Shown: piece after piece, positions 13,801 to 30,569 of the stretch | Position numbering within the stretch: position 1 is the stretch's first letter | Layout: every line of letters starts with the position of its first letter | From: an uncultured Acidobacteriota bacterium | GTDB taxonomy: Bacteria; Acidobacteriota; Thermoanaerobaculia; Multivoradales; UBA5704 | Direction of reading: 5' to 3' | NCBI GenBank assembly: GCA_963770895.1 | Contig: CAVYRF010000002.1 | Coordinates: 2,688,001-2,752,000, forward strand | Length of the DNA: 64,000 nucleotides | Program-made: the position numbers and the translations under genes | The notes under the pieces: generated by a model | What the model saw: the letters and a program-made list of their open reading frames with translations, nothing else | Told to the model about the DNA's origin: nothing | Database searches by the model: none

Positions 13801-14079
13801 ATGGCCCACCTGGTGATGCAGGACCTGGACCCGCGGGTGGTCGAAGCCCTGGCGGAGCGCGCCACGCGGCACGGCACCTCCATCGAGGCCGAGGCGCGGG
13901 CCGTGCTGGAAGGCGCGCTCGGCCTGTCGCGGGCGCGGGCGCTGGAGGGCGCGCGCCGCCTGCGGGCGCAGTGGGCGGGCCGGCCGCTGGCGGGCAGCGA
14001 CGAGCTGTTGCGGGCGGACCGCGACCGCCTGAGCGGCGACGCCGGCGACGACCCGGCGCCCGCCCGGGGAGGCGGCTGA
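13801..14079 (+). CDS. FitA-like ribbon-helix-helix antitoxin
   Basis: MAHLVMQDLD..L..RA..HG.S.EAEAR pattern; TGATG-coupled to a PIN gene. Confidence 0.8.
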   Translation: MAHLVMQDLDPRVVEALAERATRHGTSIEAEARAVLEGALGLSRARALEGARRLRAQWAGRPLAGSDELLRADRDRLSGDAGDDPAPARGGG

Positions 14080-14507
14080 TGCAGCGCTGCGTGGTGGACG
14101 CCTCGGTCGTGGCGCTGTGGTACTTCCCGCAGCCGGCCACGCCCCACGCCGACGCCCTGCTGGCCGGCAGGTGCGAGCTGCTGGCGCCCGACCTGCTGCA
14201 CCTCGAGATCGCCGCCCTGGTGGCGCGCCGGGTGCGCCGCGGCGAGATCGACGAAGAGGGCGGGCGCGCCGTGCTGGCCGAGCTGCGCCAGGTCCCCTTC
14301 GAGTGGGCGCCGGTCGCCACCCTGGTCCCCGCCGCCCTGGACCTGGCGCTGCGCGCCGATCTCAGCCTGGCGAGCAGCCTCTACCTGGCGCTGGCCATCC
14401 GCGACTCCTGTTCGCTGGTCACCGCCGACCGCCAGCTGTACGAAACCGCCTGCGCCGCCGGGCACGCCCGCAACCTGGTCTGGCTGGGCGACTTAGCCAG
14501 CGCGTAG
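14079..14507 (+). CDS. vapC: VapC-family PIN-domain toxin
   Basis: VVDAS, APDLLHLE and LVTAD motifs. Confidence 0.85.
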   Translation: MQRCVVDASVVALWYFPQPATPHADALLAGRCELLAPDLLHLEIAALVARRVRRGEIDEEGGRAVLAELRQVPFEWAPVATLVPAALDLALRADLSLASSLYLALAIRDSCSLVTADRQLYETACAAGHARNLVWLGDLASA

Positions 14508-14646: not shown

Positions 14647-15978
14647 ATGTTGAATAGACAGGAGATTTTGAAGGCTTCTGACGAGCAGGGAGTGCGCTTC
14701 ATGCGCCTCCAGTTCACCGACATCCTCGGGATCATCAAGAACGTCGAGATCCCGCGCAGCCAATTTGAGAAGGCGCTGGACGGACAGATCCTGTTCGACG
14801 GCTCGTCGATCGAAGGCTTCACCCGCATCGAAGAGTCCGACATGCTGCTGGTGCCCGACCTGGCCACGTTCCGGGTCAATCCCTGGTCCAATCCCGACGG
14901 CTCCAAGGTGGCGCGCATGATCTGCGACGTCTACATGCCGGACGGCGACCCGTTCGTCGGCTGTCCGCGCATGACCCTCAAGCGCCAGGTCGAGCGGGCC
15001 AAGAAGCACGGCTTCACCATGGTCGCCGGCCCCGAGGCCGAATTCTTCCTGTTCCAGCGCGACGAAAAGGGCGGCGTGCGCATCGAAACCCACGACGTCG
15101 GCGGCTACTTCGACCTGACGCCGGTCGATCGCGGCGAAGAGTGCCGGCGCGACATCGTCATCGTGCTGGAGGCGATGGGCTTCGAAGTCGAGGCGGCGCA
15201 CCACGAGGTCGCCCCCGGTCAGCACGAAATCGACTTCAAGTACGCCGATGCCCTGTCCACCGCCGACAACGTCACCACCTTCCGCTTCGTGGTCAAGAAG
15301 GTGGCCCAGGACCACAACCTGCACGCCACCTTCATGCCCAAGCCCATCTTCGGCGTCAACGGCTCCGGCATGCACGTGCACCAGAGCCTCCTCAACAGCG
15401 CCGGCGAAAACGCCTTCTACGATCCCGACGCGCCCTGGCAGCTGTCCAAGGTGGCGCTGTCCTACATCGGCGGCATCCTGGAGCACGCCACGGGCTTCTC
15501 CGCGGTCACCAACCCGCTGGTCAACTCCTACAAGCGGCTGGTCCCCGGCTACGAAGCGCCGATCAACGTCGCCTGGTCGGAAAAGAACCGCAGCCCGCTG
15601 GTGCGCGTCCCCGCCAAGCGCGGCATGTCCACCCGCTGCGAAGTGCGCATGCCCGACCCCTCCTGCAACCCCTACCTGGCCCTGGCCGTCATGCTGGCCT
15701 CCGGCATGGACGGCCTGGAGCGCAAGCTGGACGCCGGCGCGCCGGTCAACAAGAACATCTTCACCATGAGCGCCCGCGAAAAGGCCCGCCTGCGCATCGC
15801 GCAGCTCCCCGCCAACCTGCAGGACGCCCTGGACAAGATGGAAAAGGACGACGTCGTGCGCGACGCCCTGGGCACCCACATCTTCGAGCACTACCTGCGC
15901 GCCAAGCGCCAGGAGTGGGCCGCCTACATCTCCCACGTCCACCCCTGGGAGCAGGACCGCTACCTCACCGAGTACTGA
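14647..15978 (+). CDS. glnA: Glutamine synthetase type I (GSI-alpha-like)
   Basis: FDGSSIEGF, HHEVAPGQHEI, TFMPKP, NGSGMH and NRSPLVR motifs. Confidence 0.97.
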   Translation: MLNRQEILKASDEQGVRFMRLQFTDILGIIKNVEIPRSQFEKALDGQILFDGSSIEGFTRIEESDMLLVPDLATFRVNPWSNPDGSKVARMICDVYMPDGDPFVGCPRMTLKRQVERAKKHGFTMVAGPEAEFFLFQRDEKGGVRIETHDVGGYFDLTPVDRGEECRRDIVIVLEAMGFEVEAAHHEVAPGQHEIDFKYADALSTADNVTTFRFVVKKVAQDHNLHATFMPKPIFGVNGSGMHVHQSLLNSAGENAFYDPDAPWQLSKVALSYIGGILEHATGFSAVTNPLVNSYKRLVPGYEAPINVAWSEKNRSPLVRVPAKRGMSTRCEVRMPDPSCNPYLALAVMLASGMDGLERKLDAGAPVNKNIFTMSAREKARLRIAQLPANLQDALDKMEKDDVVRDALGTHIFEHYLRAKRQEWAAYISHVHPWEQDRYLTEY

Positions 15979-16098: not shown

Positions 16099-17505
16099 AT
16101 GGCTACCCGGAAGCGGACCGCCGCCGGAGGACCTGCCGAGGCTGCGCGAGTCGATGGGCTGTATCGGCCCTTCGTGCCGTTCGCGGATTGGGGCAGGCTC
16201 GGCGGCGTGCGCCGGGATCTGTGGGCGCGGTTCGCCGCCGCGCTCGCCCAACGCCGGCAGCTGGCCCGCCCCGACCTGCTGGAGCGGGCGGTGGCGGTTG
16301 CGCTGCGCTCGGCCGCCCTGGATACCGGTGCCATCGAAGGTTTGTACCAGGTCGATCGCGGCTTCACCTGGAGCGTCGCGGTGCAAAGCTTCGCCTGGGA
16401 GCTGGCTCTGGCGGAGCGGGGCGACAGCGTGCCGCAGCTGTTCGCCGCCCAGCTGGCGGGCTACGAGCTGGTGATCGGCCTGGTGGGCGGACGGGCGCCG
16501 CTGGGCGAGGCGTGGTTGCGCTCCCTGCACGAGCGGATCTGCGCGCCGCAAGCGACGTACCGTGTGCTGACCGCCCAGGGGTGGCAGCAGCAGACGCTGC
16601 CGCTGGGCCTCTACAAGGCGGTGGCCAACCAGGTGCGGCTGGCGGACGGCACCGTACACGCCTACGCGCCGGTTGCGGACGTGGCGGCGGAGATGCACCG
16701 CCTGGTGGAGCAGCTCCGCTCCCCGGCATTCGAAAACGCCCATCCGGTCGAGCAGGCTGCCTACGCCCATCATGCGTTCACCGCCGTGCACCCCTTCGCC
16801 GACGGCAATGGCCGGGTGGCCAGGGCGCTGGCATCGGTCTACCTGTACCGCAGCCTTGGCATTCCGTTCGTGGTCTTCGCGCACCAGCGATCGCCATACT
16901 TTGACGCCCTGGAGCACCTGGACCGCGGCGATGCCGACCCATGGCTCTCCTTTGTCGCCGACCGCGGTATCGACACGATGCAGCTCGTCCTCGAAAGCCT
17001 GCAGGCGGCAGCCGCGCCGCGCCCGGACGAAATCGCCGAGCCGATGGCCGCGGACGATGGAGCGCGGGGCCGTACCGATGCCGAGTGGGACAACCTGGCG
17101 CTGCACCTGCTGGTGGGGTTGCAGGACCGCTGGGTGCGCGCCATCGCGCCGCTTCTGGCCGGCGCCGCGATCGAGCGCGGGCCTGGCGATTGGCGGCCGC
17201 CCGCGGGCTATCGCCGCATCGACAGCCCGCGTTTTCCCGTCCTGACGCTGGCGCTGCGAGCGCCGGCCCCGGTGGCGTTCACGCGCATGATCTCCTTGCG
17301 GGTGAACGTGGCACTGGACGATGCCAATCCCTTCGCCTTCCAGCTGGAGGCCTGCGGCAGCGACGACCGGCTGGACGTGCGCGACGCCGACGTGGCTCCC
17401 GACGTCAGCGACAGCCTCCTGTTCCGCATCGACCTGTGGACCGAGCGCCAGCTGGCCACGATGATGGCGGAGCGGGCGCGCCAGGTGGCCGGCGCCCCGG
17501 CCTAG
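16099..17505 (+). CDS. Fic family protein with an uncharacterised C-terminal extension
   Basis: HPFADGNGRVAR Fic motif; N-terminal TGAIEG inhibitory-type motif. Confidence 0.9.
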   Translation: MATRKRTAAGGPAEAARVDGLYRPFVPFADWGRLGGVRRDLWARFAAALAQRRQLARPDLLERAVAVALRSAALDTGAIEGLYQVDRGFTWSVAVQSFAWELALAERGDSVPQLFAAQLAGYELVIGLVGGRAPLGEAWLRSLHERICAPQATYRVLTAQGWQQQTLPLGLYKAVANQVRLADGTVHAYAPVADVAAEMHRLVEQLRSPAFENAHPVEQAAYAHHAFTAVHPFADGNGRVARALASVYLYRSLGIPFVVFAHQRSPYFDALEHLDRGDADPWLSFVADRGIDTMQLVLESLQAAAAPRPDEIAEPMAADDGARGRTDAEWDNLALHLLVGLQDRWVRAIAPLLAGAAIERGPGDWRPPAGYRRIDSPRFPVLTLALRAPAPVAFTRMISLRVNVALDDANPFAFQLEACGSDDRLDVRDADVAPDVSDSLLFRIDLWTERQLATMMAERARQVAGAPA

Positions 17506-17786
17506 CCGAAGCGCCCTTCGCCGCGGCAAGACCTCCCCCCCTCGCCCCCGGCCCGAGCGCGGTCGCGCCGTCAGGCGCGCCGCGGTCGGGGCAATCAGCC
17601 GTAGGTGCGACGACGCCTTCCGCGAGCGTGTGGCGGCGAAGGTTCACCGTGCGAGGCAACCCTTTCTACCGTTCAGGTCACCAATGCGTTATGAGCCACA
17701 CCCATCGAGCTCGGCTCGAGCAGGTGCGGATCAGGCGGCTTTATGGAGAACCTGAACCGCAGTCACTGAGACTGAGGAGAGCACAG

Positions 17787-19421
17787 ATGAAAGAAAGACC
17801 TTCCCGATGGGCTGTCGCGTTCATCCTGCTGTTCTCCAGCGCGTCAGCCTACGCCCAGGACGCGTGCGAACGCCTCACTGCGGCAAAGATTCCCAACGCC
17901 GCGATTACGCTCGCGCAGACGGTTGCGGCGGGCACGTTCAACGGCCCTCCCGCGCTTAGCGGCACCGATCTCTCGCCTTTATATAAGAGTCTCCCGGCAT
18001 TCTGCCGCGTCGTTGCCGAGGCGAAGCCGACCGCGGACTCCGACATCAAGCTCGAAGTCTGGCTTCCGGTCTTGGGATGGAATGGCAAGCTGCAAGGGAT
18101 CGGCAGTGGCGGATTCGCCGGACTGATTGACGATATGCAGCTCGCATTGTCGGTGAAGGCGGGGTACACCGCGACGGCGACGGACACGGGCCATACGGGA
18201 TCTCCGGGCGATGCGGGTTGGGCGATGGGGCACCCGGAAAAGATTATCGATTTCGGTCATCGCGGAATTCATGAGATGACGCGCGTCGCCAAGACGGTCA
18301 TCGCGGCTTATTACTCCAAGCCGCCGCAGCGCTCATACTTCGCCGGATGTTCCGACGGCGGGCGTGAGGCGTTGATGGAAGCCCAACGTTATCCCGAGGA
18401 CTATGACGGAATCCTGGCCGGCGCTCCCGCGAACAACTGGACTGCTCTGCTCGCGACTGCAGCGTATGACATCCAGGTCCTGACGACGGATTCGGCCAGC
18501 TTCATTCCTCTGGCAAAGATTCCCACGATTGGAGCGGCGGTGAACGCCGCGTGCGACGAGGTGGATGGCGTGCACGATGGGATTCTGAACGATCCGCGGC
18601 AGTGTCACTTCGATCCCGCGACGATCCAGTGCAAGGGAGAGGATTCCGACAAATGCCTGACGGCTGCGCAGGTCGCTGCGTTGAAGAAACTCTACGCGGG
18701 AACGCTTGATTCCGAAGGGCACGTGGTGTACCCCGGCTATCTGCCCGGCGCCGAAGAGGGCCAAGGCGGCTGGGGACTCTGGATCACCGGCCCGGCGCCC
18801 GCGAAGAGTTTCATGGCGGCTTTCGCCAATGGATTCTTCTCCGCCTTTGTCTTCGGGAACTCCGCTTGGGACTACAAGACGTTCAAGGTTGATGCGGACC
18901 TGAAAGCCGCCAATGAGAGAACCGCGCAGGCCCTGAACGCTATGGATCCCGACCTCAAGCCGTTCAAAGCCCGCGGAGGAAAGTTGGTTCTCTATCACGG
19001 CTGGAACGATCCGGCGATCACGGCGTTGAACACGATCGACTATTACGAGAGCGTCATCAAGAAGATGGGGCAAAAAGACGTCGACTCTTTTGTCCGCCTC
19101 TACATGGCGCCGGGCCTGCAACACTGCGCCGGAGGCCCGGGACCGGATTCCTTCGGAGCGGTGCTGACGCCGCTGTCGGACGTCGCCGTCCATGATCCGA
19201 AGTTCGACGACCCGCAGCATAGCGTCCACGCGTCTTTGGAGCAGTGGGTGGAAAAGGCCGCGGCGCCGTCAAAAATCATTGCGTCGAAGTTCGAGGGCCA
19301 GGACCGCACGCACGCGAAGATGACGCGGCCTCTATGCCCATATCCGCAGGTAGCGAAGTACAAAGGCCGCGGCGATCCGAATGACGCCGCGAACTTTGAG
19401 TGCGAGCGGCCGACGAAATAA
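17787..19421 (+). CDS. Secreted tannase/feruloyl esterase family hydrolase
   Basis: Signal peptide; GCSDGG, HGWND and QHC (CS-D-HC) motifs; RPLCPYP; GAGGAG SD. Confidence 0.92.
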   Translation: MKERPSRWAVAFILLFSSASAYAQDACERLTAAKIPNAAITLAQTVAAGTFNGPPALSGTDLSPLYKSLPAFCRVVAEAKPTADSDIKLEVWLPVLGWNGKLQGIGSGGFAGLIDDMQLALSVKAGYTATATDTGHTGSPGDAGWAMGHPEKIIDFGHRGIHEMTRVAKTVIAAYYSKPPQRSYFAGCSDGGREALMEAQRYPEDYDGILAGAPANNWTALLATAAYDIQVLTTDSASFIPLAKIPTIGAAVNAACDEVDGVHDGILNDPRQCHFDPATIQCKGEDSDKCLTAAQVAALKKLYAGTLDSEGHVVYPGYLPGAEEGQGGWGLWITGPAPAKSFMAAFANGFFSAFVFGNSAWDYKTFKVDADLKAANERTAQALNAMDPDLKPFKARGGKLVLYHGWNDPAITALNTIDYYESVIKKMGQKDVDSFVRLYMAPGLQHCAGGPGPDSFGAVLTPLSDVAVHDPKFDDPQHSVHASLEQWVEKAAAPSKIIASKFEGQDRTHAKMTRPLCPYPQVAKYKGRGDPNDAANFECERPTK

Positions 19422-19465
19422 GCACCTGTGCACGCAGCCCCAGGATTCATGGACAGGTTGCCCTG

Positions 19466-19573
19466 TATACCCTCATCGCTCAGAGCTGCCTGGACCACGA
19501 TGTAGCTCTCGTCACCAGGGATGGCGACTTTCGCCATTTCGCCGCAGCCCGCGGCCTGCAACTACTCGGCTGA
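19466..19573 (+). pseudogene. C-terminal remnant of a VapC/PIN toxin
   Basis: Translates as YTLIAQSCLDHDVALVTRDGDFRHFAAARGLQLLG*, with no in-frame start or N-terminus. Confidence 0.7.
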
Positions 19574-19766
19574 GCTCATTACGGATGACCTCAACCAAGG
19601 TGGCTGTGCCGCCTGGCTGACCGGCGTAAGGTTCATGGCGCTGCCCAAATGACGCGAGGGCTCAGTTTCTACTACGATGCGAAGGAAGATGCTCCGCGGG
19701 CCACGGCGGAGCTCCAACCGAGCGAATACTACGAGGAACTCACCTATGAGAACCCAAAGTGGGGCA

Positions 19767-21035
19767 ATGGCTAAGCCAATCCGGCCGGCGCGCGGGCCGT
19801 CCGCCTGGGGTCCCCTTCTTGCCGGGCAGGATCGCCAGCGGGCTCTGACGGCGGTGCATGCGATTGCCGACGATCTCCGAACGCTCCCCTTGCCGCGGCA
19901 AACCTCCGAGTCGGTCTGCGACCTGGCGTGCGCAGCTCTGTTCCTTACCTATCTGGCGCAGGCAACGGGCCGCACCGGCGATGCCGTGGCGGCGCAGACG
20001 CTGCTTGAAGCTGCCACCGACCGCGCAGGCGTCGCCGAGCAGCTACCGATGTCCCTCCAAAGCGGCGCCACGGGGCTCGCCTGGGTCCTCCACCACATCG
20101 CGAAGGTACTCGAGCTCGAGGGCGCCGCGGTAGCCACGAGCTCCCTCGACGAAGAGCTGCTTGGACGTCTGCATGGCCCCGCGGACATCGGCGAGCCGTA
20201 CGATCTGCTCGACGGACTCGTCGGGCTGGGGGTCTACGGCTTCGAGTCCGGAAACCGCCCGCTGGTGGAGAGAGTCATCCGTCGCCTGGCGGCACGCAAG
20301 CAGGCTGCCGCCGAAGGTCTTGCCTGGCATATCCCTCCGGAGGACGGCGAGGGAGACTGGTTCGCAGAGGGCCACTCCAACCTGGGACTCGCGCACGGCG
20401 TCGCGGGCGTCGTCGCCTTTCTGGCCGGCGCCATGGCCGAGGACATCGAACCAGACACGGCTCGTCCGCTGCTGCTTGACACGGTCCACTGGGTCCGCCG
20501 CCAGCGCCTGCCGGACGGCGAGGCGCGCGCTTTTCCCTGGGTTGTAACCCCTGGACGGCCGCCGTTGACGCAGGGCCTCGATCCGGGGTGGGCCTACGCG
20601 GATTCGGGCATTGCTGCGGCGCTCGGCCACGCGGCGCGGGTGCTCGGCGACGCGGACCTTCTGGAGGAAGCCCTCCTGGTAGCCGAACGGGAGGCCGCAG
20701 GCATGGACGAGCTGCCGGTGCGCCAGCCCAGCATCGGCTACGGACCGGCGGGCTTTGCGCAGATCTTCACGCGCCTCTACCGGCAGACGGGTCGGCCGAC
20801 GTTCCGGCGCGCCGCTCGCAGGGAGGTCGTTCGCCTCTTGGAAATGCAAGCGCCCGGAATGGGAGCTGGCGGTTTCTTGTCGCAAGACGAAGCGGGTCGA
20901 CCGCACCAGGCGGACGTCAGCTTCCTTCGCGGCACCAGCGGCATCGGCCTTGTACTGCTGGGCGTCGCGACTGCCGTCGATCCGCTGTGGGACCGGCTTC
21001 TTCTACTCTCTCCTCTCCGCCTGGAACCGCGCTAA
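19767..21035 (+). CDS. LanC-like (lanthionine synthetase C fold) protein lacking the zinc ligands
   Basis: YDLLDGLVG, NLGLAHGVAG, FLRGTSGIGL and WDRLLLLS LanC motifs; WCYG is WAYA and CHG is GYG. Confidence 0.88.
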   Translation: MAKPIRPARGPSAWGPLLAGQDRQRALTAVHAIADDLRTLPLPRQTSESVCDLACAALFLTYLAQATGRTGDAVAAQTLLEAATDRAGVAEQLPMSLQSGATGLAWVLHHIAKVLELEGAAVATSSLDEELLGRLHGPADIGEPYDLLDGLVGLGVYGFESGNRPLVERVIRRLAARKQAAAEGLAWHIPPEDGEGDWFAEGHSNLGLAHGVAGVVAFLAGAMAEDIEPDTARPLLLDTVHWVRRQRLPDGEARAFPWVVTPGRPPLTQGLDPGWAYADSGIAAALGHAARVLGDADLLEEALLVAEREAAGMDELPVRQPSIGYGPAGFAQIFTRLYRQTGRPTFRRAARREVVRLLEMQAPGMGAGGFLSQDEAGRPHQADVSFLRGTSGIGLVLLGVATAVDPLWDRLLLLSPLRLEPR

Positions 21036-21151
21036 AAACGCACTCCGCGATAGCCCCGGCTCCATTTCCGAAGTTTCGCGCACTGCTATAGATGTGAAGA
21101 CTCAATCCCTGGCAGAAGTCGACCAGGGCCGGACCGAGAAAGGACACCAAG

Positions 21152-21301
21152 ATGAAGAAGCAGAGCACCATCCTGAAGAAGCTGAGGATCAACAGCGAAA
21201 CCCTGCTCCCTCTGGCATCACGCCAGATCCATAACGTTAAAGCGGGGGCGGGTGCCGGCACAATGGTACACCTCAACAACTCACGCGTCATCCACGACTA
21301 G
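21152..21301 (+). CDS. RiPP precursor-like peptide, 49 aa, cysteine-free (MKKQSTILKKLRINSETLLPLASRQIHNVKAG-AGAGTMVHLNNSRVIHD)
   Basis: Manual translation; AAGGA SD; class I lanthipeptide-type leader KKLxIxxETL..L...VxAG; 116 nt downstream of the LanC-like gene. Confidence 0.7.
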   Translation: MKKQSTILKKLRINSETLLPLASRQIHNVKAGAGAGTMVHLNNSRVIHD

Positions 21302-21601: not shown

Positions 21602-21715
21602 TCAGCGTTTCATGATGTGCAGGGCGCGCTCCACGATCTTGTCGACGGTGAAGCCGAAGCGCAGATACAGGTCCTTGGCCGGCGCCGAGGCGCCGAAGCC
21701 TTCCATGCCGATCAT
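21602..21715 (-). pseudogene. Transketolase C-terminal fragment
   Basis: MIGMEGFGASAPAKDLYLRFGFTVDKIVERALHIMKR* matches the FGxSAP..L...FGFT end of transketolases. Confidence 0.8.
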
Positions 21716-24115: not shown

Positions 24116-25501
24116 TCAGCCTTCGTTGTCGTTGGATTTGAGGCCGGCCTTCTTGGCGTAGTAGCGGAAGCTGCGGAAGCTCATGTGCAGCAGCTCGGCG
24201 GCCTGGGTCTGGACGCCGCCGGTGCGCTCCAGGGCCTGGGCCATCAGCTGACTGCGGATCTCTTCGAGGTGGGCTTCCAGGTCCAGACCGTCTTCGGGCA
24301 GATTGACCATCTCCTGCTGCGAGCGGCGGTTTCCCAGCAGCTGCGCCGGCAGGTCGCGGGTCGAGATGGTGTCGGCGTGCGACAGTGCCAGCGACCGTTC
24401 GATCACGTTTTCCAGCTCGCGTACGTTGCCGGGCCAGTCGTGCGCTTCGAGCAGGCGCATGGCCTCGGTCGAGATCTGGCGCGGCGGCAGGTCCATCTGG
24501 CGGCAGTACTTCTGCAGGAAGAAATCCACCAGCAGCGGGATGTCTTCGCGCCGCTGGCGCAGCGGCGGCAGGTGGATCGGCAGGACGTTGATGCGGTAGT
24601 AGAGGTCCTCGCGAAACTCGCCGGAAGCCAGGCGGCTTTCCAGGTCCTGGTTGGTGGCGGTGATGACGCGCACGTCCACCAGCTCTTCCTGGTTGCCGCC
24701 CACCTTGCGCACCACCTTCTGCTGCAGCGCCCGCAGCAGCTTGACCTGCATCGAGGGCGTCATCTCGCCGATCTCGTCCAGGAACAGGGTGCCGTGGTCG
24801 GCCTCCTGGAACAGCCCCTTCTTTTCGCGCACGGCGCCGGTGAAGGCGCCGCGCTCGTGGCCGAACAGCTCGCTTTCCAAAAGGTTTTCGGGCAGGGCGC
24901 CGCAGTTGATGGAGAGGAACCGGCGGCCGGCGCGCGGCGACGAGAAGTGGATGGCGCGCGCGATCAGCTCCTTGCCGGTGCCGCTTTCGCCGTGGACCAG
25001 AACCGTCGAGGTGGTGCGGGCGATGCGTTCGACCAGGGCGAAGATGCTCTGCATGCTGGAGCTCTTGCCGATGATGTTGTTGAACGTGTACTTCTGCTCC
25101 AGCTCGCGCCGCAGGTAGACGTTCTCGTCGGCGAGCTGCGCCCGTTCGATCGCCTTCTGGGTGATGATCTTCAGCTCTTCGACGTCGAACGGCTTGGACA
25201 CGTAGTCGTAGGCGCCCAGCCGCATCGCTTCGATCGCCGTCTTGGTCGAGGTGAAGGCGGTCATCATCACCACCGCCGTCGATGGGCTGCCGGCCTTGAT
25301 CTCGCGCAGCAGATCCAGACCGTTGCCGTCGGGCATCAGGATGTCGCACAGCACCAGCGCGTAGCTGTTGGCGGCGAGCGAGCGCTGCGCTTCGGCCGTC
25401 GAGTGGGCGGTGTCGACCGCGAACCCTTCGGACTCGAAGAGCAGCGACAGAAATTCCAGGATGCTGTCTTCGTCGTCGACGATGAGGAGCTTGGCGGCCA
25501 T
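24116..25501 (-). CDS. pilR: Sigma54-dependent response regulator (PilR-like)
   Basis: Receiver domain, GESGTGKE, ESELFGHERGAFTGA, HTH; in a pil operon. Confidence 0.88.
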   Translation of the reverse strand: MAAKLLIVDDEDSILEFLSLLFESEGFAVDTAHSTAEAQRSLAANSYALVLCDILMPDGNGLDLLREIKAGSPSTAVVMMTAFTSTKTAIEAMRLGAYDYVSKPFDVEELKIITQKAIERAQLADENVYLRRELEQKYTFNNIIGKSSSMQSIFALVERIARTTSTVLVHGESGTGKELIARAIHFSSPRAGRRFLSINCGALPENLLESELFGHERGAFTGAVREKKGLFQEADHGTLFLDEIGEMTPSMQVKLLRALQQKVVRKVGGNQEELVDVRVITATNQDLESRLASGEFREDLYYRINVLPIHLPPLRQRREDIPLLVDFFLQKYCRQMDLPPRQISTEAMRLLEAHDWPGNVRELENVIERSLALSHADTISTRDLPAQLLGNRRSQQEMVNLPEDGLDLEAHLEEIRSQLMAQALERTGGVQTQAAELLHMSFRSFRYYAKKAGLKSNDNEG

Positions 25502-25503
25502 GG

Positions 25504-27375
25504 TCAGCTGAGCGTTTCGGCGGTGACGGCGGCGGCCCGGGTGCGGGCGGCGCCGGGCGGCGGCGCACCGGCGCCCGCGCCGGTGGCGGGCAGCTCCACG
25601 GTGATGGTGGTGCCGCCGCCGGGAGAGCTTTCGACGCGCAGCCGGCCGCGGTGGTCTTCGACGATGCGGTAGACGATCGCCATGCCGATGCCGGTGCCGC
25701 CGTCGAAGAACGAATGAAAGGGATGGAAGAGGTTGGCCCGCTCCGTTTCCGACATGCCGCGGCCGGTGTCGATCACCTGCAGCCGGTAGGTGTCGCCGTC
25801 CAGGCGCCCGACCAGGCGGAAGGTGCCGCCCTCCGGCATCGCCCGCAGGGCGTTGCGCGCCAGGTTCCAGAAGATCTGGCTGACCTGGTCGGGGTCGGCG
25901 ATCAGGCGTGCGGAGCGCGGTTCCAGGTCGAGCTCCAGGCGGTGATTGCTGGAGACCTCTTCGCTGTTGCCGAGCAGCTCCATGTTTTCGGCCAGCAGCC
26001 GGCCGATGTCGAACGGCGCGATGGTGCGCTCGCGCGGCCGGGCGAAGCGCAAAAAGCCCTTGATCGTGCGGTCGAGCCGCTGGCTCTCCTTGCGCAGGAT
26101 CTCGATCAGGCGGCGCTGCGCCACCTCGTCGGGTTTGGTGCTGGAGAGCAGCTGCACCGACCCCGAGATCGCCGCCAGCGGGTTGCCGATTTCATGCGCC
26201 AGGCCGGCGGCCAGCTCGCCGACCGCCGCCATGCGGTCCTTCATGCGCAGCTCCTCCTGCATGCGGCGCCACGCCGTCAGGTCCTGGAAGATCACGATAT
26301 AGCCGCGATGCGCGCCCATGGCGTCGCTCAGGCGCGACACCGAAAAGCCGATGAACACCAGGTCGGTGCCCACCGGCACCTGCACCTCCAGGCGGAGCTT
26401 GCCCGGCGTCGAGCTGGCCGCGGTCATCTCCTCCCAGGCGCCGGTCGAAACCAGGCCGGAACGGTGGATGGGCGAGGCCAGGAGCTGTTCTTCGCTCTGC
26501 CGCAGGATGGCGACGCCGGCCTGGTTGACGCTGGTGATGACGCCTTCCAGGTCGGTGGTCATCAGGCCGCTGCTGATCGATTGGATGACGTCGCGGTGCA
26601 CCACCTGCAGGTAGGCGAGGTGCTCGCTTTTGACTTCCAGCTCGCGCTCGGCGCGGGTGGCGTCGTGGGCCAGAAACGAGGTGAGCAGCGCCATGGCGTA
26701 GAAGCCGAAAAAGTGCACCGCCAGGTTGTAGATCACGTTCCAGCGGGCGATGGCGTCGACCGCGCTCAGCCGCTGGGGCGCCGCGGCCGCCCGCGGCCGG
26801 TTGCCGCGCTCGCCGGCGGCCGGGGGCAGCGGCGAGGCTGCCTGTCCCCGAACCGATGAAGGCGGCGGCCCTGGCGTCGCGTCCACCACGGTGGGCCCCA
26901 CCGCTTCCCCCGTGTCCGCCGTCGGCGCCGTCAGGTCCTGCGGCTGCTGCAGCCAGCCGGCGGCGACCGACAGCGTCATGCCGGCGTACAGCACGAAGGC
27001 GCAGGTGGCGATGGTGACGCCGGCGCGGCGCCGCAGCAGGGTGGACGCCACGGCGATGATGACCAGGTACAGCAGGGTGAAGGGGCTGGAACCGCCGCCC
27101 AGGTGGAACACCATGACGGTGATCAGCAGCAGGTCGCCGCCGAACTGCACGTAGGCATGGGCGGCAAGGTGGTGCCGCAGCAGGCGCAGCAGGGCGATGT
27201 AGACCAGGGTGGCGCCGAAGGTGGCGGCGGCGAGCAGCATGATCCAGCGCGTCGGCTCGGCGGCAAAGGCGCCGGGGCGCGCCAGCTGGAGCAGGAAGAA
27301 GGGCAGCAATACGCTGGTCACCGCCACCACGCGGATGGCGATGTACCAGCGGATATGGCGTGCCAGGGCGACCAT
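25504..27375 (-). CDS. pilS: Membrane sensor histidine kinase (PilS-like)
   Basis: Six TM-like segments, PAS, AHEIGNPL H-box, HATPase; between pilC and pilR. Confidence 0.85.
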   Translation of the reverse strand: MVALARHIRWYIAIRVVAVTSVLLPFFLLQLARPGAFAAEPTRWIMLLAAATFGATLVYIALLRLLRHHLAAHAYVQFGGDLLLITVMVFHLGGGSSPFTLLYLVIIAVASTLLRRRAGVTIATCAFVLYAGMTLSVAAGWLQQPQDLTAPTADTGEAVGPTVVDATPGPPPSSVRGQAASPLPPAAGERGNRPRAAAAPQRLSAVDAIARWNVIYNLAVHFFGFYAMALLTSFLAHDATRAERELEVKSEHLAYLQVVHRDVIQSISSGLMTTDLEGVITSVNQAGVAILRQSEEQLLASPIHRSGLVSTGAWEEMTAASSTPGKLRLEVQVPVGTDLVFIGFSVSRLSDAMGAHRGYIVIFQDLTAWRRMQEELRMKDRMAAVGELAAGLAHEIGNPLAAISGSVQLLSSTKPDEVAQRRLIEILRKESQRLDRTIKGFLRFARPRERTIAPFDIGRLLAENMELLGNSEEVSSNHRLELDLEPRSARLIADPDQVSQIFWNLARNALRAMPEGGTFRLVGRLDGDTYRLQVIDTGRGMSETERANLFHPFHSFFDGGTGIGMAIVYRIVEDHRGRLRVESSPGGGTTITVELPATGAGAGAPPPGAARTRAAAVTAETLS

Positions 27376-30073: not shown

Positions 30074-30328
30074 ATGAGCTTGTCATCGAAGCGGGGGATC
30101 CTTCTGCTCGTCGCCGGCTTCCTGCTGGTGGCTGCGGCCTACGCGCCGCCCGCCCCAGGACATGGACCGCAGGGCGCTCAGCTGCTGACCACCTGTCCGT
30201 CCGTGCACTGCCCCGGCAATGGCGGGACGCTCACCTGCACCACTCCTCCCTGCTCGGTCATCGACAATTGCAGCATGTTTTGTGACCATGTCGTGCTGAG
30301 GTGCGGCGGACATTGCATCTCTGAATAG
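30074..30328 (+). CDS. Small secreted cysteine-rich protein (84 aa, 8 Cys)
   Basis: GGGAGA SD, Sec-type signal peptide, own promoter and downstream hairpin. Confidence 0.7.
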   Translation: MSLSSKRGILLLVAGFLLVAAAYAPPAPGHGPQGAQLLTTCPSVHCPGNGGTLTCTTPPCSVIDNCSMFCDHVVLRCGGHCISE

Positions 30329-30392: not shown

Positions 30393-30545
30393 CTAGCCGA
30401 CGCAGATCTGGGTGCAGTCGCAGGACGCGCCGGTCGCCACGTAGCAGCTCGGGCGCGCCGAGCCGCCGGCTGCCTCGCGGGTCTGGGCGGGGGTGAGCTG
30501 GCGCAGGACTTCCCGGTTGAGCTGCAGCGAAATCTTCTTCTTCAC
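30393..30545 (-). CDS. Lanthipeptide-like precursor, 50 aa (MKKKISLQLNREVLRQLTPAQTREAAGG-SARPSCYVATGASCDCTQICVG)
   Basis: GTG start with GAGGAG SD; LxLxx-E..L leader ending in GG; core has 4 Cys and 5 Ser/Thr. Confidence 0.8.
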   Translation of the reverse strand: MKKKISLQLNREVLRQLTPAQTREAAGGSARPSCYVATGASCDCTQICVG

Positions 30546-30569
30546 GTTGTCTCCTCGGTTCTGGCCGCC

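Follow-up and report, generated by a model that had tools for sequence, protein, structure and literature searches.

A clade of stand-alone LanC proteins without zinc ligands, paired with Cys-poor, His-motif peptides: a candidate cassette for histidine crosslinking

The window, by which we mean the whole 64,000-nt stretch of DNA from a soil acidobacterium that was analysed, holds a stand-alone LanC-family gene whose product has substitutions at all three zinc-ligand positions, and next to it a small ORF for a Cys-free, lanthipeptide-like precursor with spaced His residues. The two genes recur as a pair in every complete related locus. Our preferred reading, to which we assign a probability of roughly 0.5, is that they form a working two-gene RiPP cassette, in which a LanB acting in trans dehydrates the peptide and the zinc-free LanC adds His to Dha or Dhb. 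Zinc-activated thiol addition has its textbook example in the LanC enzymes. To our knowledge, zinc-free cyclases have been described only as fused class III domains, of which a noursin-type subgroup alone is known to use His. The features of the cassette are as follows.

19746..21035, + strand: stand-alone LanC-family gene of the zinc-ligand-free clade; the alternative start, ATG 19767, gives 422 aa
20385..20399, + strand: GLAHG motif, with the His found in the alignment opposite the residue proposed as acid/base His in class I cyclases
20589..20600, + strand: W-A-Y-A in place of canonical W-C-Y-G; first zinc ligand, Cys to Ala
20736..20744, + strand: G-Y-G in place of canonical C-H-G; second ligand, Cys to Gly, and third ligand, His to Tyr
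21137..21143, + strand: Shine-Dalgarno-like site GAAAGGA, with AAAGGA about 8 nt ahead of the small-ORF ATG
21152..21247, + strand: leader, residues 1-32, with the KKLRI...ETLLPL motif and a Gly/Ala-rich, double-glycine-like end
21248..21301, + strand: core, residues 33-49, and stop codon; Cys-free, with Thr37...His40 (x2) and Ser44...His48 (x3)

Two gene pieces lie outside the cassette, a PIN-like piece upstream at 19400-19573 with a faint Pfam match (E 0.065), and downstream, at 21602-21715, a transketolase C-terminal piece (23.6 bits over the last 23 profile positions).

The LanC product is 100% identical to the database protein P0001, the 429 residues of which begin at the in-frame ATG at 19746. 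Its ORF scores 88.1 bits against Pfam PF05147 LANC_like (cut-off 23.2), and the AlphaFold2 model (mean pLDDT 84.7, pTM 0.88) is an α,α-toroid, so that profile match and fold together place it in the LanC family. In a Foldseek search the top match to the model was the class I cyclase MadC (8byk; TM 0.80, E 2.6e-15), with NisC (2g02) at TM 0.73 and ThurKC at 0.54-0.60. In sequence it is closest, beyond the clade, to canonical stand-alone LanCs; both these relatives and its fold mark it as a class I-type LanC rather than a cyclase domain of class III. The open frame has no more than 460 aa in the window (425-469 aa at related loci) and carries no fused lyase or kinase domains. A class III origin was considered and rejected, as the NCBIfam LanL, LanM and LanKC models match weakly and partially, at 41-62 bits where the cut-offs are 304-650, and class I is the nearer fold.

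In NisC the zinc ligands are Cys284, Cys330 and His331, and the His proposed as acid/base in class I cyclases is His212 (PMC9889658), a numbering carried over here through the MadC alignment and the text of that paper rather than by structure overlay. In the phmmer alignment to MadC, W-A-Y-A of the window protein stands opposite W-C-Y-G, and I-G-Y-G opposite F-C-H-G; all three zinc-ligand positions are therefore substituted. The initial annotation had read GLAHG as kept, with WAYA and GYG at the ligand positions, and the frame from 19767 bears this out.

The small ORF, 21152-21301 on the + strand, encodes 49 aa and was first described as having a Shine-Dalgarno site, a lanthipeptide-type leader and a Cys-free core with Thr, Ser and two His; we find the same. 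Its core has one Thr and one Ser, making one exact [S/T]-x3-H and one [S/T]-x2-H. Against the class I leader model NF038153 (NCBIfam, lant_leader_L1a) the window peptide scores 21.8 bits, just below the cut-off of 22, and seven of nine related peptides score 28.1-34.6 bits, those of loci L016 and L019 falling below the cut-off. The ORF is conserved among the related loci in start codon, Shine-Dalgarno site, frame and leader, with a core that has little or no Cys; an AAAGGA(G)-type site stands at an equal distance from the ATG in 7/7 loci examined, and K9, E16, T17, L18, L19, L21, G32 and His40 are invariant in an alignment of 12 peptides. The dN/dS over the whole ORF, a check proposed at the outset, came to 0.44-1.03, so that constraint on the peptide is position-specific rather than global. 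With 49 codons, too short a length, and a core that is too variable, these values argue for coding neither one way nor the other, and the coding argument thus rests on the conserved frame, start codon and Shine-Dalgarno site. A weak hint of expression comes from X7, a soil metatranscriptome (RNA library, contigs), in which a single 186-nt contig matches window positions 21027-21210 with 0 differences, running from the 3' end of LanC across the spacer and 59 nt into the small ORF; it is a weak hint only because RNA libraries can contain DNA, and it is one contig of low depth, the rest of the stretch being uncovered there. Runs X1 and X4 hold near-identical DNA contigs covering most of the stretch, and X6 holds diverged pieces.

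How constant is the association of the two genes? An ORF of 42-63 aa adjoins the zinc-free LanC in 13/13 complete related loci, in the window, and at a paralogous locus of the same genome. The family leader is of a class I, L1a-like type with a clade-specific ETLL[P/S]L motif. When all ORFs of at least 90 aa within 8 kb on either side of the 13 loci were clustered, only LanC, with frames overlapping it, recurred in all. MacB/FtsX-type permeases, a Sortilin/BNR protein and a DUF4386 protein recur in part of the loci and are taken to be unrelated neighbours. LanC and the ETLLPL peptide are the only conserved pair of the neighbourhood, and the recurrence of the substitutions and the peptide type in every complete related locus is more than chance.

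The same partnership is seen across 301 sampled genomes of the class Thermoanaerobaculia. LanC matches at clade level (>580 bits) occur in three of them, the next best match being 310 bits, and full-length peptide matches occur in those three and in no other, with a peptide profile that was itself derived from peptides of these three. These tallies include the unpublished genome G184, one of the 298 negatives, in which the LanC match is of canonical level (235.6 bits) and the peptide has no match. Nine leader-only matches fall in other genomes; each of the eight that were inspected has 2-8 Cys, and WCYGD is the reading of the adjacent LanCs seen there. The pairing and co-occurrence counts come from related genomes and are not independent events.

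Zinc-site loss extends to the whole clade. The homolog set comprised 36 database homologs at 44-100% identity and 62 more distant ones. W-A-Y-[A/S] and G-[Y/F/H]-G are present in 35 of the 36, the remaining one being a fragment that lacks those columns, so that close homologs share the substitutions and do not retain Cys/Cys/His. Among the distant homologs C-H-G is found in 60/62 and W-C in 61/62. The first-ligand column is Ala in 100% of the clade and Cys in 100% of the canonical group, and the third-ligand position, in the 35 informative clade members, is Phe in 24, Tyr in 10 and His in one. GLAHG is kept in 36/36 clade homologs and in nearly all canonical ones, its His (H217, P0001 numbering) and D153 being conserved in both groups alike. 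Residues conserved specifically in the clade are H116, H210, R261, W265, D279 and E316. The former ligand loops are invariant within the clade (DPGWAY.D and GIG.GPAG), which points to a remodelled pocket and not to relaxed selection. In a tree of 92 homologs the 33 zinc-free ones make up one side of a branch (SH-aLRT 100) with one state change, a topology that gives zinc-site loss a separate, single origin inside the class I-type stand-alone LanCs. The window genome carries a second member, a paralog at G000:C1:1580170-1581510, and both copies are intact. With its peptide, which has two exact x3 motifs, the paralogous cassette covers G000:C1:1579906-1581510. In the literature searched, with subscription journals largely outside its scope, we found no description of such a zinc-ligand-free stand-alone LanC clade.

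The cores of the peptide family carry a regularity. Fourteen cores were compared for their Cys, His, Ser and Thr, a check that the initial annotation had proposed; 11 have no Cys and three have one, and each has 2-6 Ser/Thr. The motif [S/T]-x3-H occurs 25 times, against 4.3 +/- 1.9 in shuffled cores, and 0/20,000 shuffles reach 25; in nine divergent cores it occurs 15 times against 2.9 expected (again 0/20,000). No other S/T-to-His spacing exceeds 7 occurrences. Exactly two motifs are present in 12 of the 14 cores, and the peptide of L014/L116 contains one His only and lacks an exact x3 motif. None of Lys, Asp and Glu is conserved. The H-x3-S-x3-H spacing of the initial annotation thus survives in part: it is present as an overlap of two [S/T]-x3-H motifs, but in only part of the family, and the general signature is two [S/T]-x3-H in tandem. 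In this signature the dehydratable residue is N-terminal and the nucleophile C-terminal, i to i+4. Such an order is that of a small lanthionine ring, as in ring A of nisin, with His in the place of Cys.

Complex modelling, which had been proposed as a check, gave an ipSAE of 0.10 for the best control and of 0.70 for LanC and peptide, a mark reached by 58/80 solved complexes and 2/110 mismatched pairs, counts that are rough, as own alignments were used. The runs share at least 61% of contacts, and peptide pLDDT is at least 49, so the fold of the peptide is uncertain. In the predicted interface, leader residues 5-15 and 17-24 lie on LanC residues 84-161, including the clade-specific positions 111, 122, 131 and 134. 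The prediction is confident for placement of the leader only, the core being excluded.

Where would dehydration come from? The initial annotation saw no LanB. We sought one in the window and within 8 kb on either side of the related loci and found none there; the sole full-length LanB of the genome (552.8 bits, G000:C2:5180050-5183589) lies 2.47 Mb from the cassette, convergent with a canonical LanC and having no local precursor. The 5/5 other genomes that bear the clade also have a LanB elsewhere, at 495 bits or more. In the window genome only 5 of 71 precursor-like ORFs are within 5 kb of any LanC, LanM or LanB gene; because the other 66 are far from lanthipeptide enzyme genes, and there is one full-length LanB, modification in trans looks like the rule in this genome, and a dehydratase acting in trans would fit it. 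Several dedicated LanCs are scattered through the genome, which also has nine C39-peptidase matches. The 67 other leader-HMM matches of the genome carry 2-10 core Cys, and the four ETLLPL peptides 0, 0, 1 and 1, the two that adjoin the genome's two zinc-free LanCs being those without and the other two being orphans.

The cassette might work as follows. The peptide would be translated with its L1a-type class I leader bearing the clade-specific ETLLPL, and the LanB encoded elsewhere, which presumably also dehydrates dozens of dispersed Cys-rich precursors of the genome, would convert core Ser/Thr to Dha/Dhb. The leader would be held on the N-terminal helices of the zinc-free LanC, where the retained acid/base residues (the GLAHG His and the conserved Asp, Trp and Tyr) could promote a Michael-type attack on each Dha or Dhb by the imidazole of the His that lies four residues further on. 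Zinc would be dispensable, since there is no thiol to activate. The product would have up to two small histidinoalanine or histidinobutyrine rings instead of lanthionines, and a C39-peptidase ABC exporter from elsewhere would cleave at the Gly/Ala-rich junction. By analogy with noursin, the function is possibly metal binding. A counterpoint is that the dehydratase gene is absent from the cassette and from conserved neighbouring positions; dehydration is a step that we infer. The noursin authors, moreover, describe (PMC10206099) His addition to Dhb as chemically difficult, and there it required prior ring strain.

Comparison with known systems shows how the window pair is placed between them. 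Like NisC and MadC, the enzyme is stand-alone, of about 420 aa, an α,α-toroid that keeps the GxAHG His, Asp and Trp-x-Tyr, and its adjoining peptide has a leader like the class I L1a type. Unlike them, it belongs to a clade with ligands changed from Cys to Ala, Cys to Gly and His to Tyr or Phe, with conserved residues and a leader motif peculiar to it, with a Cys-free adjacent substrate and with no adjacent LanB. Set against the canonical class I system, the acid/base His and the Asp are present, and the zinc ligands and core Cys are missing. In noursin, His11 and Dhb8 are joined as histidinobutyrine in a Michael-type reaction by the cyclase domain of NorKC, which is free of zinc (PMC10206099). 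Like NorKC/LanKC-Hbt, the window LanC is without zinc ligands and its peptide has a Thr N-terminal of a His, Thr37...His40 having noursin's x2 spacing. NorKC differs in being a fused lyase-kinase-cyclase with an LELQEL-type leader on its substrate and in needing a Cys and a labionin ring first. The window system is stand-alone, with a class I-like fold, an L1a/ETLLPL leader and usually Cys-free cores in which x3 occurs twice, and its His crosslink is a prediction. The dispersed precursors and one full-length LanB of the window genome resemble the prochlorosin-type arrangement (PMC7268733). Prochlorosins are class II (LanM) and cyanobacterial; the leaders of the window genome are class I L1a-type and acidobacterial, and its several scattered dedicated LanCs are a further difference.

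Other readings of the pair must be weighed. The zinc-free LanC might no longer be a cyclase at all, and serve instead as a leader-binding partner (a chaperone, LanB scaffold, immunity or sensing protein), with peptides that are linear, dehydrated or unmodified and spaced His that bind metal or are recognized by a receptor. The loss of all three ligands, the restriction of confidently predicted contacts to the leader, the location of several clade-specific conserved residues in that interface and the lack of a dehydratase nearby speak in its favour. Against it stand the active-site acid/base His, Asp and Trp-x-Tyr, which stay invariant, and the former ligand loops, which are 100% conserved with specific replacements and no drift; and the strict x3 spacing from S/T to His, twice per core across cores that are otherwise unalignable, is a constraint expected of a ring-forming enzyme and needless for metal binding. 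We consider a non-cyclase role unlikely. A different reaction on the dehydrated or native peptide is quite unlikely: the nucleophile might be a small molecule, water, or a carboxylate or amine side chain, the enzyme might carry out stereoselective protonation, or the chemistry might be unrelated to Dha/Dhb, with His as recognition element or catalytic helper. The clade's own conserved polar residues H116, H210, R261, D279 and E316, which have no assigned role, would leave room for this, but His is the sole potential nucleophile that almost every core keeps at a set spacing from Ser/Thr, and Lys, Asp and Glu lack conservation there.

Might the enzyme instead resemble class III LanKC and close thioether or labionin-type rings without zinc, with Cys peptides as true substrates and the Cys-free neighbours degenerate or secondary? 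Class III cyclase domains do form thioethers without zinc ligands (PMC7268733), and three of the 14 ETLLPL-type peptides have one Cys. In the lineage of L011, L012, L091 and L092 the zinc-free LanC is directly preceded by a precursor-like ORF with Cys, and another lies 3.6 kb upstream; zinc-independent thioether formation may therefore occur. They are confined, however, to that one closely related lineage and have a generic leader, not ETLLPL; 11 of the 14 family peptides are Cys-free, including both beside the zinc-free LanCs of the window genome, and the enzyme is class I-type in its fold, nearer to MadC and NisC than to ThurKC. As a general account we judge thioether formation very unlikely. 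Simple decay, in which a dying lanthipeptide cluster lost its LanB, the LanC ligands and the peptide Cys, is scarcely credible. The window cassette does lie between gene remnants, but the substitutions and the peptide type persist in homologs down to 43-44% identity, both copies in the genome are intact and no complete locus has a frame disruption. The initial annotation had held that decay would be indicated by close homologs with Cys/Cys/His and Cys-containing peptides, and close homologs lack Cys/Cys/His while their peptides have little or no Cys; clade-wide conservation, intact paired loci, the second copy and the single-branch tree led us to reject it.

Histidine addition in trans-dehydrated peptides is accordingly the reading we carry forward. 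A wider claim, offered tentatively and as possible rather than probable, is that these loci represent an undescribed class I lanthipeptide-like RiPP branch, in which a stand-alone LanC, acting after a LanB from elsewhere, gave up its zinc site in exchange for His addition to Dha/Dhb and makes small, sulfur-free bicyclic peptides with two (i, i+4) histidinoalanine or histidinobutyrine rings. Zinc-site loss is matched, locus by locus, with precursors that have His for Cys at ring-forming spacing, and this yields a sharply testable crosslink prediction that involves three genes only, LanA, LanC and LanB. The zinc and zinc-free sister enzymes would form a natural pair with which to ask how a LanC picks its nucleophile. 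The work also flags these acidobacterial genomes as holders of very large, dispersed libraries of lanthipeptide precursors. If the proposal is true, the LanC family would gain its first dedicated aza-Michael cyclase that is not of class III, and the products may be metal-binding peptides of soil Acidobacteriota.

What kind of enzyme is the zinc-free LanC of the window? The gene, its motifs and its neighbors are as follows.

14647-15978: ORF that, from its translation, reads like a glutamine synthetase
16099-17505: Fic-domain protein (64.6 bits)
17700-19421: tannase/feruloyl esterase (413.7 bits)
19746 or 19767 to the stop at 21035, plus strand: LanC ORF (Pfam LANC_like, 88.1 bits vs a cut-off of 23.2)
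20385, plus strand: GLAHG, frame from 19767
20589, plus strand: W-A-Y-A, frame from 19767
20736, plus strand: G-Y-G, frame from 19767
21152-21301, plus strand: small ORF of 49 codons, starting 116 nt past the LanC stop, AAAGGA site ahead
24116-25501, minus strand: ORF that reads like a response regulator (from translation)
25504-27375, minus strand: ORF that reads like a histidine kinase (from translation)

The genes around the cassette look like ordinary chromosome content. Two gene remnants flank it. The one at 19400-19573 (plus strand, 57 aa) has a faint PIN-domain match (E 0.065), and the window has a PIN-domain ORF that is still intact at 13971-14507; the one at 21602-21715 (minus strand, 37 aa) matches no more of the transketolase C-terminal domain than its final 23 positions (23.6 bits, below cut-off).

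The three motif positions given by the initial annotation were reproduced exactly. W-A-Y-A and G-Y-G align with W-C-Y-G and C-H-G of MadC (8byk), the best solved relative by sequence. In the available part of PMC9889658, MadC is a class I cyclase, the NisC equivalents of these motif residues are the zinc ligands Cys284, Cys330 and His331, and NisC His212 and Asp141 are proposed acid/base residues. An AlphaFold2 model of the zinc-free LanC (pLDDT 84.7, pTM 0.88) is nearest in fold to class I MadC (TM 0.80) and NisC (TM 0.73), whereas class III ThurKC is more distant (TM 0.54-0.60). The enzyme is of class I type, and its loss of the zinc site was independent of class III.

A search of a 5.8-billion-protein collection gave 98 LanC homologs, all of which were aligned. 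GLAHG is found in 36 of the 36 closest (44-100% identity), and W-A-Y-[A/S]-D together with G-[F/Y/H]-G in 35, the 36th being a fragment without those columns; the close homologs with the same substitutions that the initial annotation had proposed to look for are thus at hand. At the His-ligand position of the 35, Phe stands in 24, Tyr in 10 and His in 1. Among the 62 distant homologs (at most 39% identity), W-C is kept in 61 and C-H-G in 60, the exceptions being one misaligned fragment and one gap. A tree was built from 92 homologs, P0026, P0029, P0035, P0071, P0084 and P0096 being dropped as shorter than 340 or longer than 520 aa, and its alignment kept the few zinc-ligand trait columns. The 33 zinc-free rows fall together, set apart by a branch with SH-aLRT 100, so that a single loss of the zinc site is enough to explain the tree. 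Residues H116, H210, R261, W265, D279 and E316 (numbering of P0001, an identical database protein) are conserved in the clade and absent in canonical LanCs. One might take the missing ligands as the mark of a dying lanthipeptide cluster. The loops that once held the ligands do not vary among clade members, and among the loci compared the peptide ORFs differ in length by whole codons; we regard decay as extremely improbable. In a 301-genome sample from the class to which this genome belongs, clade-level matches (583-714 bits) turn up in three, the next best match scoring 310 bits. The window's own genome has 14 PF05147 matches, two of them zinc-free (the window's and C1:1580170-1581510), and the remaining readable ones carry canonical motifs.

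On L1a, the NCBIfam model for class I lanthipeptide leaders, the window's peptide reaches 21.8 bits, vs a cut-off of 22 that is passed by 7 of 9 relatives; its last 17 residues lack Cys and include a single Thr, a single Ser and two His. We gathered nine genome and five metagenome loci of the clade, one of which (L018) is broken off inside LanC. Each of the 13 complete loci has, next to its zinc-free LanC, a small ORF that shares this leader: ten have it about 100-150 bp downstream, L012 has it 779 bp downstream, and L016 and L019 have it directly upstream. The paralog in the window's genome also has such a peptide, so that the retention of the small ORF, which had been put forward as a check, is borne out. 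The gap at L012:9216-9993, about 780 bp vs about 110 bp elsewhere, suggests an insertion. The paralog's cassette (C1:1579906-1581510) is intact, and the core of its ETLLPL peptide has two exact [S/T]-x3-H motifs. An AAAGGAG-type Shine-Dalgarno site precedes the peptide ORF in 7 of 7 loci checked, and K9, E16, T17, L18, L19, L21, G32 and His40 are invariant in 12 distinct aligned peptides. The only conserved neighbors found around the clade loci are LanC and peptide. Among the 301 genomes, full-length matches to a peptide profile occur in just the three with a zinc-free LanC; since the profile was built from those three, the informative part is its absence in the other 298. Nine more matches are to the leader only. 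The eight inspected all have 2-8 Cys, and in the two cases with a LanC in view it reads WCYGD.

Is there a signature in the cores? Ser or Thr with His four residues on occurs 25 times in 14 distinct ETLLPL-type cores, vs 4.3 +/- 1.9 in composition-preserving shuffles (0 of 20,000 reach 25), though the peptides are homologous and the counts are not independent trials. A reduced set of nine divergent cores has 15, vs 2.9 expected (0 of 20,000). Each other spacing from 0 to 7 occurs 0-7 times in the 14 cores. The subgroups' cores are otherwise unalignable, and [S/T]-x3-H is kept in each subgroup. Exactly two motifs are present in 12 of the 14; the window's core has one plus a spacing-2 motif, and that of the L014 peptide has none, with one spacing-2 motif. 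The H-x3-S-x3-H spacing first remarked on holds for part of the family; the general signature is [S/T]-x3-H, of which it is two overlapping copies.

What does the enzyme do with such a core? The best reading of the sequences, to which we give a probability of about 0.5, is that a LanB would dehydrate core Ser/Thr to Dha/Dhb and the zinc-free LanC would then join the downstream His to each, giving small nitrogen-linked rings, analogues of lanthionine rings. Noursin offers a precedent: the likewise zinc-free cyclase domain of NorKC links His11 to Dhb8 by a leader-dependent, Michael-type addition (PMC10206099, available part). The same text has the noursin authors calling His addition chemically difficult, which counts against our reading, as do the lack of a dehydratase gene near the cassette and the two imperfect cores, the window's own among them. 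A further difficulty is Cys: 3 of 14 peptides have a single one, and in one lineage (L011, L012, L091, L092) LanC is preceded by Cys-bearing, precursor-like ORFs whose leader is generic, one immediately upstream and one 3.6 kb off (in L091, 7703-7996 and 4366-4587), although the window has neither. Such residues might be substrates if the LanC made thioethers zinc-independently, which we think improbable given how few of the family's own peptides have Cys.

Modeling of the LanC-peptide complex, suggested at the outset, succeeded for the leader contacts. The prediction passed with a score of 0.70, vs 0.10 for the best control. Of 80 solved complexes, 58 reach this mark, as do 2 of 110 mismatched pairs; these counts apply only roughly, because our own alignments went into the prediction. 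Runs share at least 61% of contacts, and the peptide has a pLDDT of at least 49, so that its own fold is uncertain. The confident predicted contacts place leader residues 5-15 and 17-24 on LanC residues 84-161, with four clade-specific conserved positions (111, 122, 131, 134) in the interface; the core has no confident placement. A non-catalytic leader binder would give the same picture, but GLAHG and the core signature persist, and we hold this to be unlikely, if the leading alternative to His addition. Catalysis of another reaction seems somewhat less likely again, the [S/T]-x3-H spacing being what His addition would use.

In the literature searched, which largely omits subscription journals and supplements, we found no account of a clade of zinc-free, stand-alone LanCs, nor of class I-type peptides with His replacing Cys. 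In the parts available, the analysis of Walker et al. 2020 leaves out Cys-free peptides (PMC7268733), and a 2026 study of LanC latent spaces in PNAS names only class III as without ligands (PMC13552915). In X7, a soil metatranscriptome run, a single 186-nt contig matches window 21027-21210 without a difference (LanC 3' end, spacer, start of the small ORF), a weak hint of cassette expression.

Where might dehydratase and export come from? A single full-length LanB is encoded in the genome (552.8 bits, 1179-aa open frame, C2:5180050-5183589), at a distance of 2.47 Mb from the window. It and a canonical LanC are convergently oriented, and no precursor lies close by; a second LanB-like match is weaker (124.5 bits). 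A LanB of at least 495 bits lies elsewhere in the genome in 5 of 5 other clade-bearing genomes searched. For cleavage at the Gly/Ala-rich end of the leader, the window's genome offers nine C39-peptidase matches as candidates. A leader HMM finds at least 71 precursor-like small ORFs there (E at most 1) with class I L1a-type leaders, for example:

C2:5161123-5162370 and C1:844718-845236: library spans
C2:5020187-5020498 and C1:652841-653143, both minus strand: orphan ETLLPL peptides, no LanC nearby, each with two [S/T]-x3-H motifs and a single Cys

Their cores have 2-10 Cys in 67 of 71, and 0, 0, 1 and 1 in the four with ETLLPL, two of which adjoin zinc-free LanCs and two of which are these orphans. 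In the window, a long minus-strand frame carries at its 3' end (30393-30560) another L1a-like leader with a Cys-rich core (leader HMM E = 1.6, weak); the neighboring ORF at 30074-30328 (plus strand) encodes 84 aa, is Cys-rich too, and its N-terminus is signal-like. The genome holds a large, dispersed lanthipeptide precursor library, at least 71 ORFs vs a single full-length LanB and roughly twelve genes with a LanC domain. Because only 5 of the 71 lie within 5 kb of a LanC, LanM or LanB gene, and 66 lie farther away, modification in trans seems to be usual in this organism.
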